Below the pieces are notes generated by a model. That model made no database searches. It had not been told where the DNA came from and worked only from the letters and a program-made list of their open reading frames with translations. From an uncultured Gammaproteobacteria bacterium (GTDB lineage Bacteria; Patescibacteriota; Patescibacteriia; Patescibacteriales; GWC2-42-12), in assembly GCA_964553705.1 (NCBI GenBank), contig CAZKKV010000016.1, forward strand, positions 1 to 20,886: 20,886 nucleotides of DNA, read 5' to 3'. The translations under genes and the position numbers were made by a program. Of the stretch, positions 11,826 to 17,840 are shown one piece after another (the first letter of the stretch is position 1; each line of letters begins with the position of its first letter).

Positions 11826-11866
11826 CCAAACAAAAACCGTTCCAATTTATTGGGGCGGTTTTTGCG
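11826..11866 (+). terminator. rho-independent terminator AAAACCGUUCCAA-UUUA-UUGGGGCGGUUUUUG (two G·U pairs on the plus strand)
   Basis: stem plus T-run read directly after the zinc-ribbon stop. Confidence 0.55.
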
Positions 11867-12030
11867 TACAAGAAAGCATTGTCAAAAATAATTTTTTATG
11901 CTAATTTTACAATATTGAATTTTTTCTTTAAAAAATCTCAACAACAGCCCGTGAGGCTATTAATAGTAAATGTAGAAATCAAGTCGAATTTCTACTAGCT
12001 ATTTTATAATTAATTTGATTTTCTACATTC

Positions 12031-12228
12031 ATGCAAGGAACTATTAAAAAATTGACTGATAAGCATTTTGGCTTTATCAGTCAGGAAGGCGTTGAAAAAG
12101 ATTTATTCTTTCACGCCAATGAATTGGTTGATGTGGAATTCGACCAACTCAGAGAAGGCGATGCCGTCACCTTTGAGATAAGCGATACTCCAAAAGGCCA
12201 AGCTGCCGTGCAAGTAAAAAAAGCTTAA
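12031..12228 (+). CDS. cspA: cold-shock protein (CspA family)
   Basis: 65 aa; GTIKKLTDKHFGFISQEG...DLFFHANEL... is canonical CSD with RNP1/RNP2; structured 5' UTR with nested inverted repeats (AAATGTAGAAAT...ATTTCTAC...TTTTCTACATT, 11967-12029). Confidence 0.95.
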   Translation: MQGTIKKLTDKHFGFISQEGVEKDLFFHANELVDVEFDQLREGDAVTFEISDTPKGQAAVQVKKA

Positions 12229-12254
12229 GACTTTTTTAGATAGCGCAAAACAAA

Positions 12255-12290
12255 AACCGCCCCAAATACTCGGGGTGGTTTTTGCGTATT
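12255..12290 (+). terminator. rho-independent terminator AACCGCCCC-AAAUACU-CGGGGUGGUUUUUG after cspA
   Basis: GC stem plus T-run; flanks shared with the terminators at 11826 and 15575 (acaaaaaccg...ggtttttgcgta). Confidence 0.6.
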
Positions 12291-12321: not shown

Positions 12322-12855
12322 TCAATCGAGATGAAGTTTATATAAACAAATAAAATCTTTTTCCCATTCCCAAGCTAAGCCAGGGTATTTTTTGATTAAA
12401 TTTCTTAATTCATTTATCATTTTTTTACTTTTTAAATATTCCATATAATTTAAAAATTTTTTATTACTTATTTTTTTCAAGCTTGGGCATAATTTTTTTC
12501 TCATTCGAGATAAAAAAATTTCTCTATTTTTTTTAACCAAAATAAATGGCCACAATGCGCAATCTAAAGGACGACAATCGTAAACTTGGCATTCATTAGT
12601 TTCTTCGTTTAAAAATGGGCACAAATAAATATTTGTTTTTTTTGATTTTTTTAAACGTACTTGAAAAATATTTTTATTTTTTTTAAACTGCTTAAAATTA
12701 ATTCTTGTCCCCGTTTTTTTATAAATATTATTTGTTTCAATGTCAGTAGCAATTGGTGCAAAATACTTATCTTTTAATAGAAAACGACAACAAGGCGTGT
12801 GGCAAGAGAAACAATCCTGTGAATTTATTATTTTATTTATTTTTATTTCTAACAT
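12322..12855 (-). CDS. YkgJ/UPF0153-family CxxCxxCC putative zinc/iron-chelating protein
   Basis: 177 aa; CFSCHTPCC plus CPFLNEETNECQVYDCRPLDCALWPF matches the C..C...CC ... C..Y..RP..C..YP signature (PF03692-like); 14 nt downstream of the ATP-grasp gene (operon). Confidence 0.75.
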   Translation of the reverse strand: MLEIKINKIINSQDCFSCHTPCCRFLLKDKYFAPIATDIETNNIYKKTGTRINFKQFKKNKNIFQVRLKKSKKTNIYLCPFLNEETNECQVYDCRPLDCALWPFILVKKNREIFLSRMRKKLCPSLKKISNKKFLNYMEYLKSKKMINELRNLIKKYPGLAWEWEKDFICLYKLHLD

Positions 12856-12869
12856 TTTGATTTTAAAGA

Positions 12870-15353
12870 TTAAATAATATTTGTCTGCAAATGATAATAA
12901 CTAGGCTTATTTTTGTAGCGTTTGATTGTCATTCTGATTATTTCTTCCAAAAAATCTCCATAATCCATGCCAACAAATTTTGAAGTGCGTGACAAACAAT
13001 CTTTTACATTAATAGATGGATTAGGGTTTAATTCCAAAACATAAGGGTTATTATTCTTGTCAACTTTTACTTCTACTCGACCGTAATCATGACAGTCTAA
13101 AATATTATAAGTATCAAGAGCAATTTCGGTAATCAAAGATTCTAGTTTTTTATTACTATTTTTGGACGGCTCTTCCACTATGACAGTTTTATAAACCGGA
13201 TCGTTTGCCCATTTGGAATCATAAGCATAAATATGCCAATAACCCTTAGGCATTTTATCAAAAATTGAGCGCGATAAAGGCAGAACGCGTAAGTCGTCCT
13301 CCTCACTACCAATAATAGGCACGTCATATTCATCACCTTCAATATATTCTTCAATCAATGCTGGGCTACCCAACTCAACAATTACTTTTTTCAATTGTTT
13401 TTTTAATTCTCGTTTATTTATCACCACTGATTCATTGGTAATGCCTATTGAATTGTCAGTATTGGCTGGCTTAACTATCAGGGGGTATTTTAATTCGTCG
13501 TCAATTTCATCATCAATGTTGTAAGCATAATCCCATTTGGCTGTCGGAATACCATGATAGGTTAATAATTTTTTTACTCTGATTTTATCAATACATAAAC
13601 CAAGCGTAAATGGATTGGAACCGGTATAAGGAATTTGCAATATGTCAAAAATCGAAGCAGCATGCGGTTCTAATAAACTGGAATTATTTATTCTTTCGCA
13701 GACATTAAAAACCAAATCAACGTTGCTGTCTTTTAACTCGTTAAACGCTTTTGGTAAATCGTTAAAATCAAAAAAAGTTGCTTGGTAGCCTCTTTCACCT
13801 AAAGTTTTTTCAATATTTTTACCTACAGAAAAAAGTTCAGTGTCAATAACTTCATTTTCATCTAGCGGTAAGTTGCAAGCGATACCGATATGCAAATTAC
13901 GTTGATTAGCAATTAATAATCGTCTGATTTTTTCCAATTTAGCAGCGCCTTTCAAAATTTCTTTATTAGCCGAAGCCATAGAGAATCTGTTTCTTCTTAA
14001 TGTCTTGCCGATTGAAGATGCCGGATCAAATTTGGCAGTTTCATAACGAACACTTTTTAAAATTTCATCAAGATTGTCTTCAGCGTCAATTGGATTATCG
14101 CCAGAGGCAACCATCCAACCCAAATATTCATAACCTTCTGGCGGGACTAGGACGGTGTCGCCGATTTTTTTAAACAAATACAACTCTTCAAGATTTTTAT
14201 TTTTTTTAATTTTTTCATCAACATCCAATTTAACTAGTAATCCTGAATCATCGGGCGTAAAAGTATTACTAATTAAATATTTATACGGTTCAATCGGTTT
14301 TTTTAACTTCTCAACATAAATTCCCAGAGCGATTTTCACAGCATTTTCAATCAAATCAACTCTCCAAGCTTCTTTGGTAAAGGCGTATGTTTCATCACCA
14401 CCCATTCTTAAATTTATTTCAATCGGCACTGGACCGTTTTTTGTTGCTTTGGCTTCAAAATGAATACAGCCGTTTTGTATTTCTAATTTTTCTAAAACTC
14501 TTTCTGCCATTTCGAATAAAGCTGTTTGATCCTTTTCTGGCAAGTCAGACGGAATAGCTTGTTGATGTTCAATAAAAAAAGGTTCTTCAGTTTTGTAATT
14601 ATCAACGATTGAATAAAATTTTATTTTGCCATTTTGTAATAAAATATCAATATCAACTTCATCGCCGTCAATATATTCTTCAATTAAAATTTCCACACCT
14701 TCACTCAATGACGATTCAACGGCTGGTGAAATATTTTTTTTGACGTAATTATATGTGTCAAAAAAATCGTCCTGATTTTCAGCTTTGACAACAAAAGCGC
14801 TTGAAGAGCCAAAAATCGGTTTGAAGACAACTGGAAATTTCAAACCATTTGTTGCACGACCAATGTCTTTGTCGGATTTAATCAGCAAATGTCTTGGAAA
14901 AGCAATACTATTTTCTTCACAAAATTGTCTGAACAAAAATTTATTACGTGCTTTTTTGGCAGTTTCTAATGGAATGCCAACCAAATTAAGTTGCTCAACT
15001 ATTTTGGAAATCAATAGCACGTCATCTTCCCAAAAAGTAATTACACCGTCAATATTTATCTCAGAATGAGAAGCCAAGAATTGCTCTAAATCTTCCAAAG
15101 CTTTGGCGTGATTGCGGTTATCAGTAATCACCCAATCGTCAACATAAGGACTAGCCCAATTTTTTTCCGGATTTATGACAATTATTTTTAAACCGAGTCT
15201 TTTAAGTTTTTGAACGATAAACTTTTTTTTGAGTGAACCAGTATTGACCAACAACAAGGTTTTACCTGCAAACAAACCATTATTCTGATGATTATTATTA
15301 TTGTTTTTTCTGCTATGATTCATAAAATTTTTTAGATAAACAAAAAAAGACAA
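12870..15353 (-). CDS. large tandem ATP-grasp ligase (two ATP-grasp modules; the C-terminal one is D-Ala-D-Ala-ligase-like)
   Basis: 827 aa; module 1 FPVVFKPIFGSSSAFVVKA...EINLRMGGDE; module 2 YPLIVKPANTDNSIGI...VLELNPNPS; TTG start called by the ORF track (an internal ATG at codon 11, MNHSRK, is an alternative). Confidence 0.85.
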   Translation of the reverse strand: MSFFVYLKNFMNHSRKNNNNNHQNNGLFAGKTLLLVNTGSLKKKFIVQKLKRLGLKIIVINPEKNWASPYVDDWVITDNRNHAKALEDLEQFLASHSEINIDGVITFWEDDVLLISKIVEQLNLVGIPLETAKKARNKFLFRQFCEENSIAFPRHLLIKSDKDIGRATNGLKFPVVFKPIFGSSSAFVVKAENQDDFFDTYNYVKKNISPAVESSLSEGVEILIEEYIDGDEVDIDILLQNGKIKFYSIVDNYKTEEPFFIEHQQAIPSDLPEKDQTALFEMAERVLEKLEIQNGCIHFEAKATKNGPVPIEINLRMGGDETYAFTKEAWRVDLIENAVKIALGIYVEKLKKPIEPYKYLISNTFTPDDSGLLVKLDVDEKIKKNKNLEELYLFKKIGDTVLVPPEGYEYLGWMVASGDNPIDAEDNLDEILKSVRYETAKFDPASSIGKTLRRNRFSMASANKEILKGAAKLEKIRRLLIANQRNLHIGIACNLPLDENEVIDTELFSVGKNIEKTLGERGYQATFFDFNDLPKAFNELKDSNVDLVFNVCERINNSSLLEPHAASIFDILQIPYTGSNPFTLGLCIDKIRVKKLLTYHGIPTAKWDYAYNIDDEIDDELKYPLIVKPANTDNSIGITNESVVINKRELKKQLKKVIVELGSPALIEEYIEGDEYDVPIIGSEEDDLRVLPLSRSIFDKMPKGYWHIYAYDSKWANDPVYKTVIVEEPSKNSNKKLESLITEIALDTYNILDCHDYGRVEVKVDKNNNPYVLELNPNPSINVKDCLSRTSKFVGMDYGDFLEEIIRMTIKRYKNKPSYYHLQTNII

Positions 15354-15395
15354 TTCGAAAAATGCCTTCTGTTCAAAAGTAATAATATTAAATTT

Positions 15396-15533
15396 TTAAT
15401 TTGTTCTGAACAAAAATTGTTCAGGGGGTCTGGTTCTGTATCCGAAAACGGATTCATATTTTAATTGTCGGCTAGCGCTTTGAGTTAAACGCAGTTGACG
15501 CGCCGGACGATTGTATTTACTAGATAGAATCAT
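15396..15533 (-). CDS. speculative 45-aa basic peptide ORF directly upstream of the ATP-grasp gene (MILSSKYNRPARQLRLTQSASRQLKYESVFGYRTRPPEQFLFRTN)
   Basis: open frame found by manual translation; no clear SD; locally GC-rich; position fits a candidate substrate/precursor peptide but this is inference only. Confidence 0.15.
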   Translation of the reverse strand: MILSSKYNRPARQLRLTQSASRQLKYESVFGYRTRPPEQFLFRTN

Positions 15534-15574
15534 TTTAGAACAACTGTAGAAAAAAGCAAGAGAGTAGACATAAA

Positions 15575-15606
15575 AACCGCTTCGATTACTCGGGGTGATT
15601 TTTATT
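15575..15606. terminator. hairpin AACCGCUUCG-AUUA-CUCGGGGUGAUUUUUAUUUU immediately 5' (plus orientation) of repeat copy A
   Basis: stem ccgcttcg/ctcggggtg with a wobble, T-run follows. Confidence 0.45.
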
Positions 15607-15612
15607 TTAGCT

Positions 15613-15672
15613 GGGTCACGTCGTGAAGGAGATTGGAACTGTATTTAAAAATATTGATAAATTTATTTATAT
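15613..15672. repeat. copy A of a ~60-nt direct repeat (core gggtcacgtcgtgaaggagattggaactgtatttaaa identical for 37 nt; 55/60 overall with copy B)
   Basis: direct comparison with 16948-17007; on the minus strand the repeat lies about 260 nt upstream of the ATP-grasp gene start and is preceded by a TATAAAT box. Confidence 0.75.
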
Positions 15673-15746
15673 TCCTTGTCTAATAAATAAAAACGACGGT
15701 TAACCAAACGAATGATTAACCGCCTTCAAGTTGAGAGGTGAACGGA

Positions 15747-16721
15747 TTATTTTTTCTCCTCTTTTTCCGCAGGAGGGGTCGGTGAAACAGTTTTTGTTCT
15801 ATTTACTTCATAATCACCGGGGGTAGCGGCGACCGGTGTTCCGTAGGGCATAAAAATAACTTTACTGATTGATTTTGCCTCTTCGCCAGTGACCAGATTG
15901 TTAAACGCATCAACGTATTTTTCCTTAATAGCCAGGTCTTTCCACTGAAGAAGTTCGGGGGCGATAGATAAAGCATTCGCCAAATTTTTAGCTTCTTGAG
16001 CTAAAACGTCCTTTTTGGCAACCTGCAAGGCTTTTTCTTTTACCTGACGCTTCTCGGAAATTTCGGTAGATTTTAAGAGTTCCTGCTCGGCAAGCATACG
16101 CGGGGGCGGATTGATGTTTGAAATATTCACACTCAATACCCCGATGGGAGTGCCCTTGAATTGCGTTCTCAACCAATTGGTAGCTTTTTCGTTCAATTCC
16201 GCTCGTTTTTCCTTGGCGGTTCCGTATTCTTCTTTACCGAGCATATTTCTGATTTCTGTGCGGAATGGCTCCCGATATCGGTCATTCCAAAAATTCATAT
16301 AGTTTTCAAAATAGTCTTTGGCATTTATTTTGAATTTCTCAATGTTTGCGTCGGGCGTGGCTGGAGAATTTATGATGTAAAGGATTACCGAGGCAGATAA
16401 TTCCATATTAATTCGGTCAACAGACATAATTCTGGCATCGGTTTCCTTGTTCTCGCCGGCTCCACCGATTGGACTAAAATATTCTTTGACCGTCCAGGGC
16501 TTATAGGTTTGATGGTATCGGATTCCATTGCACCAACCAAATCCATAAGATGACGGACCGATAATGATGCCCAGAAATTCACCTTTTTCCCCAATAATAA
16601 ATGGTTGGTTGGTGACATACCCCACTTCACCTGCTGGGACACTGGGGTTCGAGCAACCGATAGTGCTCACCAGAACAAAACATACAAGCAATACAAGCAA
16701 AAATCTGGAAAATCTTTTCAT
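15747..16721 (-). CDS. SPFH/band-7 (prohibitin-like) domain lipoprotein
   Basis: 324 aa; lipoprotein signal MKRFSRFLLVLLVCFVLVSTIGC (lipobox); central SPFH-like region and C-terminal coiled coil (AEQELLKSTEISEKRQVKEKALQVAKKDVLAQEAKNLANALS); AGGAGG RBS. Confidence 0.65.
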   Translation of the reverse strand: MKRFSRFLLVLLVCFVLVSTIGCSNPSVPAGEVGYVTNQPFIIGEKGEFLGIIIGPSSYGFGWCNGIRYHQTYKPWTVKEYFSPIGGAGENKETDARIMSVDRINMELSASVILYIINSPATPDANIEKFKINAKDYFENYMNFWNDRYREPFRTEIRNMLGKEEYGTAKEKRAELNEKATNWLRTQFKGTPIGVLSVNISNINPPPRMLAEQELLKSTEISEKRQVKEKALQVAKKDVLAQEAKNLANALSIAPELLQWKDLAIKEKYVDAFNNLVTGEEAKSISKVIFMPYGTPVAATPGDYEVNRTKTVSPTPPAEKEEKK

Positions 16722-16914
16722 TTTGTTTCCTCCTGTTTCAATTATTTTTTATATTGCCGAAAAACATTTGCCTTATTAAGGTATTTTTGATTTTTTATCC
16801 TCCTTAAATTTTGTATTTTAAAGAAACGAAAAATAATTACACAATTCAACATATTTATATAACATATATTTTAAATTTAGTCAATCGTAAAATTTATTTA
16901 TTCTATTTAAATTA

Positions 16915-16946
16915 TAAAAAACTGCTAGTTTTAGCAGTTTTTTTCG
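16915..16946. terminator. perfect hairpin AAACUGCUAG-UUU-UAGCAGUUU flanked by an A-run and T-run (bidirectional intrinsic terminator) immediately 5' of repeat copy B
   Basis: 8-9 bp perfect stem, TTTTTTT follows on the plus strand, A-run precedes. Confidence 0.55.
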
Positions 16947-16947
16947 T

Positions 16948-17007
16948 GGGTCACGTCGTGAAGGAGATTGGAACTGTATTTAAAGATATTGATGAACATA
17001 TTTATAT
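16948..17007. repeat. copy B of the ~60-nt direct repeat
   Basis: see copy A; lies about 225 nt upstream (minus strand) of the SPFH lipoprotein gene start; falls inside six-frame ORF 16811-17035, which is judged spurious. Confidence 0.75.
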
Positions 17008-17026
17008 ACCGAATCTAATGCAATAT

Positions 17027-17797
17027 TTAATTTAAAGTGGCTATCCATTTTTTAAATATTTTTTTAACTTCATTTAAATGCTGTTTACCTCTAAAGGTGT
17101 GGGGGGCTCCTTTTATAATATAAAATTCTTTTTTACTCGACAATTTATCATATAACAATTGCTGATGATTAGGTGGTATTGAATCGTCTAATTCTCCCAC
17201 AATAATCAATACGGGCATAGTTAACATATCAGCTTTTCTCAATAAATCATATTTCATCCGATCCTCCATGTGCGACCATTTTAATTTTTTGATTAAACCA
17301 GGTTTTGATTTACTCTCTTGAATTTTCCAACCAGTTCTTTTCCAATTATCTATTTCTTCTTTGGAATGAGCCTTAAGACTTAGTTTCCCGGAAATGAGAG
17401 CGGAAATCGGAGCAATAGCTTTTATTTTTTGAGGATAATTTTCTGCATAATAAGCTATACAAAAACCACCTAGACTGTGACCAGTCAGACAAAATGGCTC
17501 CTTATACCAACTCTGTGTTTCCGCCCAATTAATTACATCTTCTAAATCTTCGTAGTAATTTGTCACCGTAGCATTTTCATATTGACCGTCGCTTTCACCA
17601 ATCGTATTGGTAGTATCAAACATAACAACGGTATAACTGTTTTCCTTAAAAGCGTTTGCGAATGTTCTAATATGATCCTGTTCCTTAAATCCTCCCAATC
17701 CGTGCATTACAAACACTAATCCTTTTTGATTTTGTATCTCTTCAATAGTTACCACTATCTTTTGGTTTTTTCTATTTTTAATAATTTTTTTATCCAT
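17027..17797 (-). CDS. alpha/beta-fold serine hydrolase (esterase/lipase-like)
   Basis: 256 aa; nucleophile elbow LTGHSLGG; HGLGG oxyanion region; C-terminal His-containing motif GAPHTF. Confidence 0.85.
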   Translation of the reverse strand: MDKKIIKNRKNQKIVVTIEEIQNQKGLVFVMHGLGGFKEQDHIRTFANAFKENSYTVVMFDTTNTIGESDGQYENATVTNYYEDLEDVINWAETQSWYKEPFCLTGHSLGGFCIAYYAENYPQKIKAIAPISALISGKLSLKAHSKEEIDNWKRTGWKIQESKSKPGLIKKLKWSHMEDRMKYDLLRKADMLTMPVLIIVGELDDSIPPNHQQLLYDKLSSKKEFYIIKGAPHTFRGKQHLNEVKKIFKKWIATLN

Positions 17798-17840
17798 ATG
17801 ATTTTATTTTAGTTCAATTCCCTAAGTTGGTCAAACAAAA

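Follow-up and report, generated by a model that had tools for sequence, protein, structure and literature searches.

The window analysed here, which is a stretch of 20,886 nucleotides (nt) taken at its full length (contig CAZKKV010000016.1 of assembly GCA_964553705.1), carries on its minus strand a gene for a tandem ATP-grasp ligase, a gene for a protein of the CxxCxxCC (YkgJ/UPF0153) type immediately downstream and, between a promoter-like site and the ligase, a leader with a short upstream open reading frame (uORF). The genes and the boundaries of this unit, with protein lengths in amino acids (aa), are as follows.

12260-12275, minus strand: intrinsic-terminator-like hairpin after the ligase/CxxCxxCC unit, shared back to back with a convergent cold-shock gene
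12322-12855, minus strand: 177-aa CxxCxxCC (YkgJ/UPF0153-type) protein, PF03692
12870-15323, minus strand: tandem ATP-grasp ligase of 817 aa with an ATG start (open reading frame (ORF) list, Pfam, structure matches)
15532-15559, minus strand: promoter-like site TTGCTT-N16-TAAAAT, proposed from sequence reading as the start of the ligase unit
15695-15724, minus strand: terminator-like hairpin of the upstream SPFH gene, a 12-pair stem with a T-run

The original prediction, made from the letters of the window, had described two genes in one operon, and their arrangement is confirmed by the ORF list, in which the long minus-strand ORF is open over 12870-15353 and the 177-aa ORF (12322-12855) lies 14 nt apart. 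The length of 827 aa, counted from a TTG at 15353, had to be revised, and the TTG was rejected as the start: in the 85%-identical related locus L001 the stretch from the TTG to the ATG is out of frame and closed by a stop codon, and the gene callers place the start at the ATG. Therefore, we take the ligase to span 12870-15323 and to comprise 817 aa, the ATG at 15323 being its most likely start. Co-transcription with the CxxCxxCC gene is probable because of the 14-nt gap and because the sole downstream terminator sits past the second gene, and the operon thus stands as a probable one. At the other end, the strong putative terminator of the SPFH gene (15695-15724) sets the upstream boundary of the unit. 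The promoter hexamers are retained in L001 (TTGCTT-N16-TAGAAT) and L025 (TTGCAT-N16-TATAAT; alignment A3), and in L057 too. Furthermore, L057, which comes from a separate assembly and has 99.4% identity with the window, repeats the order of ligase, CxxCxxCC gene and cold-shock gene, so that the gene arrangement is real and no chimera.

The assignment of the downstream gene to YkgJ/UPF0153 held: its product scores 27.1 bits against PF03692 (Pfam cut-off 23), and a cysteine cluster, CFSCHTPCC, is visible in the translation together with C..C..C. With this family it has in common the N-terminal Cys cluster (here CxxCx3CC) and a downstream Cys-rich segment, and it differs from it in being very divergent. 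Among 5.8e9 proteins the search for homologues returned solely the protein itself, the phage and plasmid collections gave zero matches, and tblastn against the 57 related loci of our neighbourhood survey gave a sole match, the identical protein of L057, which is of the same species; in the 56 other loci no CxxCxxCC gene was found beside the ligase. The gene region has a GC content of 28%. What follows the ligase stop codon in L001 is a gene for a 430-aa ATP-grasp_3 protein, not in the window; the DNA homology between the window and L001 starts at 15562 and stops exactly at the ligase stop codon, and comparison of the two found no remnant of the ATP-grasp_3 gene beneath the CxxCxxCC gene. Because the gene is restricted to one species, because it has no other homologue and because the homology to L001 stops at the ligase stop, we regard the ligase/CxxCxxCC pairing as a lineage-specific replacement and no conserved system, in which the CxxCxxCC gene would be a recently acquired, species-specific passenger at the place of L001's third ATP-grasp gene. 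The functional pairing suggested earlier was thus not upheld, the combination being missing in the 56 other loci, and across relatives the ligase is not always adjacent to a YkgJ-like gene or to a small ORF. This case also calls for caution in inferring function from neighbourhoods, as the striking ligase/YkgJ pairing, for which the locus was first singled out, proved to be an accident of gene order in one species and the least meaningful part of the finding.

The tandem ligase and its family

The ligase comprises two modules.

14022-15275, minus strand: N-terminal module, about aa 17-434, L-amino-acid-ligase-like (Pfam, 3vot match)
12873-13895, minus strand: C-terminal module, about aa 477-817, Ddl-like (Pfam, NCBIfam, fold)

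That the protein is a tandem of two complete ATP-grasp modules with a Ddl-like second one, as read at first from the letters, is supported by Pfam. The N-half contains ATPgrasp_N, ATP-grasp_4 and LAL_C2 at aa 51-439 (LAL_C2 with 47.6 bits, cut-off 29.4), and among proteins of solved structure the L-amino acid ligase (LAL) BL00235 comes nearest (PDB 3vot; E 1e-26 by sequence, TM 0.87 by fold), with RizA and BacD next; both the domain architecture and the fold are those of a LAL. The C-half contains Dala_Dala_lig_C at aa 603-806 and matches Ddl structures with a TM of ~0.85 (Foldseek). In the AlphaFold AF2 model (pLDDT 83) a disordered linker (aa 435-457) connects the two modules. Across 39 family members the catalytic ATP/Mg residues of both modules are invariant, with K168, E215, E302, N304 and R306 in the N-half and K618, E764 and N766 in the C-half, and each half displays the fold, the Lys and the Glu/Asn Mg2+ ligands of the ATP-grasp superfamily.

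Searches of the separate halves with hidden Markov models, in NCBIfam and Pfam, gave LAL, Ddl and carbamoyl-phosphate-synthase-like matches, with the curated NCBIfam cut-off reached by no model for either half. The Ddl model PRK01372 gave 150.9 bits for the C-half and 187.6 for the whole protein (cut-off 243), TIGR01205 gave 118.6 and 149.7 (cut-off 245.65), and the BacD and DdaF equivalog models gave 46-48 bits against cut-offs of 840-850. In a BLASTP comparison with Escherichia coli DdlB, for which the sequence used was identical to PDB 2dln, the residues K144, E180, K215, R255, E270 and N272 are kept; of the residues that we take from the literature to bind D-Ala (Glu15, Ser150, Tyr216, Ser281 and Leu282), S150 is changed to N, Y216 to W, S281 to D and L282 to C, and the Glu15 motif has no aligned counterpart in the C-half. 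Judged by these comparisons, the C-half is Ddl-like and is not to be named Ddl. Membership of a cyanophycin synthetase or glutathione-type family, which would have given the protein a ready explanation, was looked for and not found: the cya_phycin_syn model reached 20.7 bits (NCBIfam cut-off 850), and no glutathione synthetase model is among the matches listed for either half. On these model scores, the tandem ligase belongs to no characterised enzyme family at the equivalog level.

With the L-amino acid ligases (BL00235/3vot of B. licheniformis, BacD/YwfE, RizA and DdaF) the N-half shares the domain set, the fold and the ATP/Mg residues, whereas its identity to them is 23-24% and it is fused here to a second ligase module. 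Likewise, the C-half shares with DdlB the Ddl fold and the six retained residues, but it falls under the NCBIfam/TIGRFAM cut-offs, its substrate positions are changed and it sits behind a LAL-like module. A known enzyme of comparable design is the bifunctional glutathione synthetase GshF, in which a single chain with two ligase modules makes a tripeptide by two ATP-dependent reactions; its first module is a gamma-glutamylcysteine ligase of the glutamine-synthetase-type fold and its second a Ddl-like ATP-grasp. By analogy, the tandem ligase may follow the same two-step logic, with the difference that its first module is an ATP-grasp one and LAL-like.

A protein search with the ligase gave 861 matches. 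The best 120 of the 861 are all ~800-840 aa long, apart from a few truncated ones, have the two-module architecture and are 60-86% identical; the named members among them are Patescibacteria, including Komeili-, Roizman-, Peregrini-, Gracili- and Buchananbacteria. Clustering at 50% identity gives ~15 full-length clusters, together with many single-module relatives of each half. A full-length tandem homologue of 29% identity was also seen outside Patescibacteria, in a Bdellovibrionales metagenome-assembled genome (P0146 / P0275). We found no papers on this ligase family in searches that covered ATP-grasp proteins in Patescibacteria or the candidate phyla radiation (CPR), fusions of LAL with Ddl, and glutamate racemase in connection with CPR peptidoglycan. 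This family of double ATP-grasp ligases of ~810 aa is highly conserved and unstudied across Patescibacteria (CPR), and what is new here is its uncharacterised LAL-Ddl-like fusion architecture and an undescribed leader. The genomes of Patescibacteria are very small, with few biosynthetic genes, and a central role is likely for an 810-aa ligase that burns two ATP and is at least 60% identical across several classes; a cell-envelope peptide, a cofactor-like peptide and a counter-ion are candidate roles of its product.

In most of the related loci the ligase stands alone amid housekeeping genes (ClpC-like ATPase, thymidylate kinase, tRNA synthetases), and the contexts vary by lineage. Some relatives add optional partner genes. 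Near the ligase, six lineages encode an ATP-grasp_3 protein that weakly matches MfnD, a tyramine-glutamate ligase, and six a LysA-like pyridoxal-phosphate decarboxylase that scores below the LysA cut-off. Extra LAL-like genes lie beside the ligase in L010, L013 and L042; a 461-468-aa protein in L021, L043 and L056 has as its sole family match a weak one to the MurL peptidyl-Glu epimerase (32.7 bits, E 3e-8); and an enolase-superfamily (MR/MLE) protein in L027 and L043 finds its best match in the L-Ala-D/L-Glu epimerase (167.7 bits, cut-off 500). These partner genes suggest a pathway that makes a small peptide with an epimerised Glu and an amine obtained via decarboxylation, reminiscent of the murein stem peptide, and, from their presence in some relatives, they suggest that Glu or a D-amino acid is part of the peptide made by the ligase.

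Several of these genes are gathered in extended operons (L010/L051, L013, L042, L043, L056, L020 and L021), which add one or two LAL-like genes, ATP-grasp_3, the LysA-like decarboxylase, the MurL-like protein and/or the MR/MLE epimerase-like protein, and which contain up to five ligase modules in a row; L013 has two copies of the LysA-like decarboxylase. Glutamine-synthetase-family genes were seen in two close relatives, beside the ligase in L026 (3434-4873) and ~2.4 kb upstream of it in L025 (2559-3626), that of L026 also matching, at a score under the cut-off, the model for gamma-glutamylputrescine synthetase. In another clade (L006, L009/L040, L015, L017, L022, L023, L036 and L046) the ligase is divergent from the ClpC-like gene, and a gene for a 404-aa MgtE_N-CBS protein is found within ~2.5 kb of the ligase, mostly 0.2-2.5 kb downstream, often with an Nramp transporter after it. 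The proximity of the MgtE_N-CBS and Nramp genes may be plain shared gene order, and it is of note given the MgtL-like leader in other clades.

The leader upstream of the ligase

A small ORF had been expected close to the ligase, and this expectation proved right in part. The 45-codon basic ORF proposed at 15396-15533 was rejected, as L001 has two stops within its frame, L057 has ATA in place of its ATG and, in the window, this ATG overlaps the -10 box of the TTGCTT-N16-TAAAAT site. A different ORF, in another frame, is conserved in several lineages, and the leader that holds it has these features:

15332-15457, minus strand: 41-codon leader ORF MNPFSDTEPDPLNN..., stop codon included (ORF list, conservation)
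15336-15370, minus strand: terminator-like hairpin AGAAGGCA-N10-TGTCTTTT with a T-run; 12 nt separate its end from the ligase ATG
15406-15424, minus strand: hairpin CTGAACA-atttt-TGTTCAG inside the leader ORF, right past the EPDP codons (sequence reading)

The leader ORF begins with MNPFSDTEPDP..., in which DTEPDP occupies codons 6-11 (15425-15442) and EPDP residues 8-11, and in L001 it stays open over 41 codons. Five of the six residues of DTEPDP are aspartate, glutamate or proline (D/E/P), which agrees with the sequence pattern of MgtL-type short uORFs, that is, at least four D/E/P in six residues near the N-terminus; this threshold and the EPDP motif were taken from bioRxiv 10.1101/2021.02.02.429294. 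Applied to the first 15 residues, the same threshold of at least 4/6 picks out uORFs in the window, L001, L025, L026, L020, L014, L016 and L012, each immediately in front of the ligase or of the operon that contains it. The protein identity of these relatives goes down to 44%, and the uORFs measure 22-41 codons. Beyond L001, their N-termini read as follows.

L025: MKFFADLESEPPDD, D/E/P window ESEPPD, 5/6
L026: ..SSDEPPPS, D/E/P window SDEPPP, 5/6
L020: MRNSDEPDH, D/E/P window NSDEPD, 4/6
L014: ..INREEPPDT, D/E/P window REEPPD, 5/6
L016: MDSEDPLPD, D/E/P window EDPLPD, 5/6
L012: MEPEPPS, D/E/P window EPEPPS, 5/6

The codons for D, E and P differ between the lineages (GAT/GAC, GAA/GAG, CCC/CCT/CCA/CCG), and at the nucleotide level solely the leader of the same-clade L001 was matched, the distant leaders sharing no similarity in the nucleotide search; the leaders of distant lineages were recognised by peptide and structure. 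For a background, we counted the ATG ORFs of 20-60 codons in all loci with at least two Pro and at least three Asp/Glu in the first 15 residues: they number 22 among 2756 (0.8%), and 11 of these 22 are the leader uORF, two more being the L014/L041 uORF. No D/E/P uORF was found before the extended operons of L010, L013, L021, L042, L043 and L056.

A second regularity concerns the terminator. At the position of the window hairpin, a stronger hairpin with a T-run (-6.9 to -16.5 kcal/mol) is present in L001, L025, L026, L027, L020, L014, L016 and L012; the stem sequences are unrelated between lineages, and pairing is found in all. Each D/E/P uORF precedes or traverses a hairpin and T-run that end 10-45 nt before the next start codon, and the uORF stop codon always falls just before, inside or after the hairpin. 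A hairpin with a T-run right before the first gene of the operon was found in nine of the 37 distinct upstream regions, eight of which carry a D/E/P uORF; the uORF of L027 is without the motif.

The inverted repeat CTGAACA/TGTTCAG that had been noticed earlier was indeed found, at 15406-15424. The equivalent hairpin of L001, CAAGCAA-tat-TTGTTTG, has kept its pairing despite changes on both arms. In the minimum-free-energy fold the 3' arm of the 15406-15424 hairpin pairs alternatively with TTTTGAACAGAAG, overlapping the 5' arm of the terminator, and since the terminator's 5' side is thus open to pairing with this arm, the leader can take on at least two folds that exclude each other. Rfam recognises two tRNAs in the window at the gathering score, and matches of the leader at E <= 1 amount to noise.

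A proposed reading of the locus and its rivals

D/E/P-rich sequence near the N-terminus of a nascent peptide destabilises the translating ribosome, and in MgtL an EPDP just past the start brings about such destabilisation, more strongly at low Mg2+, and thereby controls mgtA (bioRxiv 10.1101/2021.02.02.429294). Since the uORF of the window has the same EPDP tetrapeptide, we propose leader-peptide transcription attenuation for the ligase. From the layout of the leader, which is read directly from the sequences, we infer a mechanism and a signal as follows. The 41-codon ORF passes through the terminator-like hairpin and T-run; a ribosome finishing this ORF would occlude or melt the terminator, whereas stalling or dropping off at the D/E/P motif would alter which hairpins form. 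Consequently, completion versus stalling or abortion at the motif would decide whether transcription reaches the ligase. As for the enzyme, the 817-aa protein may be a self-contained one that forms two amide bonds, each module activating a carboxylate as an acyl-phosphate and joining it to an amine, in keeping with the chemistry of the superfamily; it would make a small peptide, probably a tripeptide, by two ATP-dependent steps. Taken jointly, a two-step peptide ligase, its leader-peptide attenuation and a CxxCxxCC passenger make up the reading that we favour, with a confidence slightly on the positive side of even. The leader ORF with its terminator would then offer an experimental handle on the regulation and on when the cell wants the product.

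The known systems lend this reading a logic and also mark its limits. Both the MgtL uORF (mgtA leader of E. coli and Salmonella) and ours are short, lie in a 5' leader and have D/E/P near the N-terminus, EPDP being the same in the window, and in both, by analogy in our case, translation of the uORF would be coupled to a decision on transcription termination. The differences are that the MgtL peptide is shorter than the 22-41 codons seen here and that its gene encodes a Mg2+ transporter instead of a ligase. Homology to the enterobacterial mgtA leader was not detected by Rfam, with no match at the gathering score or at E <= 1, and since MgtL acts through Rho and not through an intrinsic terminator, the analogy is one of logic. 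A leader ORF that crosses its terminator is also familiar from the pyrBI operon of E. coli, where a close-following ribosome blocks the hairpin; the signal there is the pausing of RNA polymerase at low UTP and not the sequence of a nascent peptide. In the window, too, the leader ORF runs through the terminator, with no homology to pyrBI or MgtL.

Several points weigh against what we propose. All of the evidence is comparative and the organisms are uncultivated, and the D/E/P criterion was chosen after the peptides were seen. No recognisable Shine-Dalgarno sequence precedes the uORF or the ligase. The terminator hairpin of the window is, at -5.3 kcal/mol, the weakest of the set, the z-scores of the leader folds are modest (-1.1 to -2.2), and the other 28 of the 37 upstream regions have neither the hairpin and T-run nor a D/E/P uORF. 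Within the 41-codon uORF there is another promoter-like match, TTCAGA-N17-TATTAT (15382-15410), which, if it were a true promoter, would leave the uORF start off the transcript. In MgtL, termination is Rho-dependent, in contrast to the intrinsic hairpin and T-run here. As to the passenger, the CxxCxxCC gene is stably linked to the ligase within the species and probably co-transcribed with it, and a local functional link may therefore exist.

Of the other explanations, the one that survives best, unlikely as we hold it to be, is that the leader works purely at the RNA level, as a riboswitch or as a protein- or tRNA-binding attenuator, and that the small ORF is accidental. The window and L001 are identical over 51 nt that include the uORF start, the changes further on are mostly non-synonymous and one hairpin has compensatory changes, all of which would fit an RNA element, as would the lack of a Shine-Dalgarno sequence and the terminator being the most regular feature. 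However, this explanation is weakened because Rfam gave not one family match even at E <= 1 and because conservation is found at the level of the peptide without being found at that of the nucleotides: the distant leaders, with no nucleotide similarity, all encode a D/E/P-rich N-terminus with different codons. Moreover, CCN codons are unexpected in non-coding DNA of 33% GC, the background of such ORFs is 0.4-0.8%, and the uORF stop codon holds its position relative to the hairpin.

A further alternative, which we judge to be improbable, concerns the enzyme and takes it for a housekeeping one of peptidoglycan precursor synthesis, with a C-half that serves the organism as its true D-Ala-D-Ala ligase and an N-half that makes another cell-wall dipeptide. 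The best matches of the C-half are indeed all Ddl, the conservation across Patescibacteria is very high and in housekeeping contexts, and the homologue of L-Ala-D/L-Glu epimerase by the ligase (L027, L043) and the weak MurL match (L021, L043, L056) would agree with it. These points are offset by Ddl scores far under the curated cut-off (150.9-187.6 against 243), by the altered substrate residues and unaligned Glu15 motif described above, and by the finding that no mur, ddl or division genes adjoin the ligase in any locus examined.

The weakest alternative, very improbable in our view, is that of the original prediction, in which a graspetide-like system of ribosomally synthesised and post-translationally modified peptides (RiPP), or another peptide-modification system, is made up of the ligase, the YkgJ-like protein and a small peptide encoded upstream, with the product of the small ORF as the substrate. 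In its favour, eight lineages have a conserved small ORF beside the ligase, in whose conserved part Asp/Glu are abundant and some Ser/Thr occur, these being residues cross-linked by graspetide ligases, and a single transcript probably carries both the ligase and the CxxCxxCC gene. Against it, the two halves are LAL- and Ddl-like, the best 25 NCBIfam matches of each half include no model of a graspetide maturase (the RimK Pfam match being partial and weak), the proposed 45-codon ORF is broken in relatives and the YkgJ-like gene is adjacent in this species only. Nor is the uORF an adjacent precursor with a conserved Thr/Ser/Lys and Asp/Glu core, as it is present in 8-9 of the 37 lineages (~28 of them being without it) and only its first 6-15 residues are conserved. 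A role as substrate is thus weakened because most family members have no uORF and because the N-terminal residues alone are conserved, with the motif at the extreme N-terminus, no leader segment before it and an unconserved C-terminal part that overlaps the terminator. These features of the ORF at 15332-15457 point to a regulatory leader peptide, not a substrate.

Returning to the attenuation that we propose, a more far-reaching version of it, to which we assign a low probability, would make the D/E/P leader a sensor of ribosome stability (Mg2+, proline, EF-P) wired to an intrinsic terminator, with the ligase product tied to ribosome destabilisation. The proline codons of the MgtL leader confer sensitivity to proline and EF-P too. 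If this version were true, attenuation based on destabilisation would exist outside Proteobacteria, and the ligase product would be a small peptide, or an organic cation derived from one, which is needed, or whose making must stop, when ribosomes are destabilised; in some lineages peptide epimerases, a LysA-like decarboxylase and a third ATP-grasp would modify it further, and the MgtE_N-CBS and Nramp genes by the ligase would exceed shared gene order. If the leader works like MgtL, the sensing of a nascent peptide would reach into a distant bacterial group and a different termination mechanism.

Further features of the window

The repeat copy noted earlier upstream of the unit is real: an 80-nt direct repeat (15605-15684 and 16940-17019, 86% identical) flanks the SPFH gene as a pair, each copy touching a terminator-like hairpin, and it was not found in any related locus. 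By eye, each copy shows on the plus strand an AAGGAG followed after 4 nt by a TTG-started 16-codon hydrophobic ORF (MELYLKILINLFIFLV / MELYLKILMNIFIYRI), and the repeats could be a small-peptide or small-RNA cassette. The block of SPFH/Band7 and alpha/beta-hydrolase genes at 15563-17800 has no counterpart in the closest relative, L001, where the order is tRNA-His, cold-shock and YibE/F genes and ligase, with several rearrangements relative to the window.

Similar GC-rich hairpins (AAAAACCGCCCC...GGGGCGGTTTTT) occur at 11828-11868, 12248-12288 and 15568-15608; they form a family of back-to-back terminators around the cold-shock and zinc-finger genes, with a degenerate copy upstream of the ligase promoter. 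The 56-aa treble-clef zinc-finger protein (PF23477, 11596-11766) and the cold-shock protein (12031-12228) are 94% identical to their L001 counterparts, and their neighbours are far less conserved. Additionally, ribosomal protein S6 (866-1351) has 161 aa, against 90 residues for the Pfam domain, and short direct repeats lie at 939-964 and 1011-1036 in the region of its C-terminal extension.

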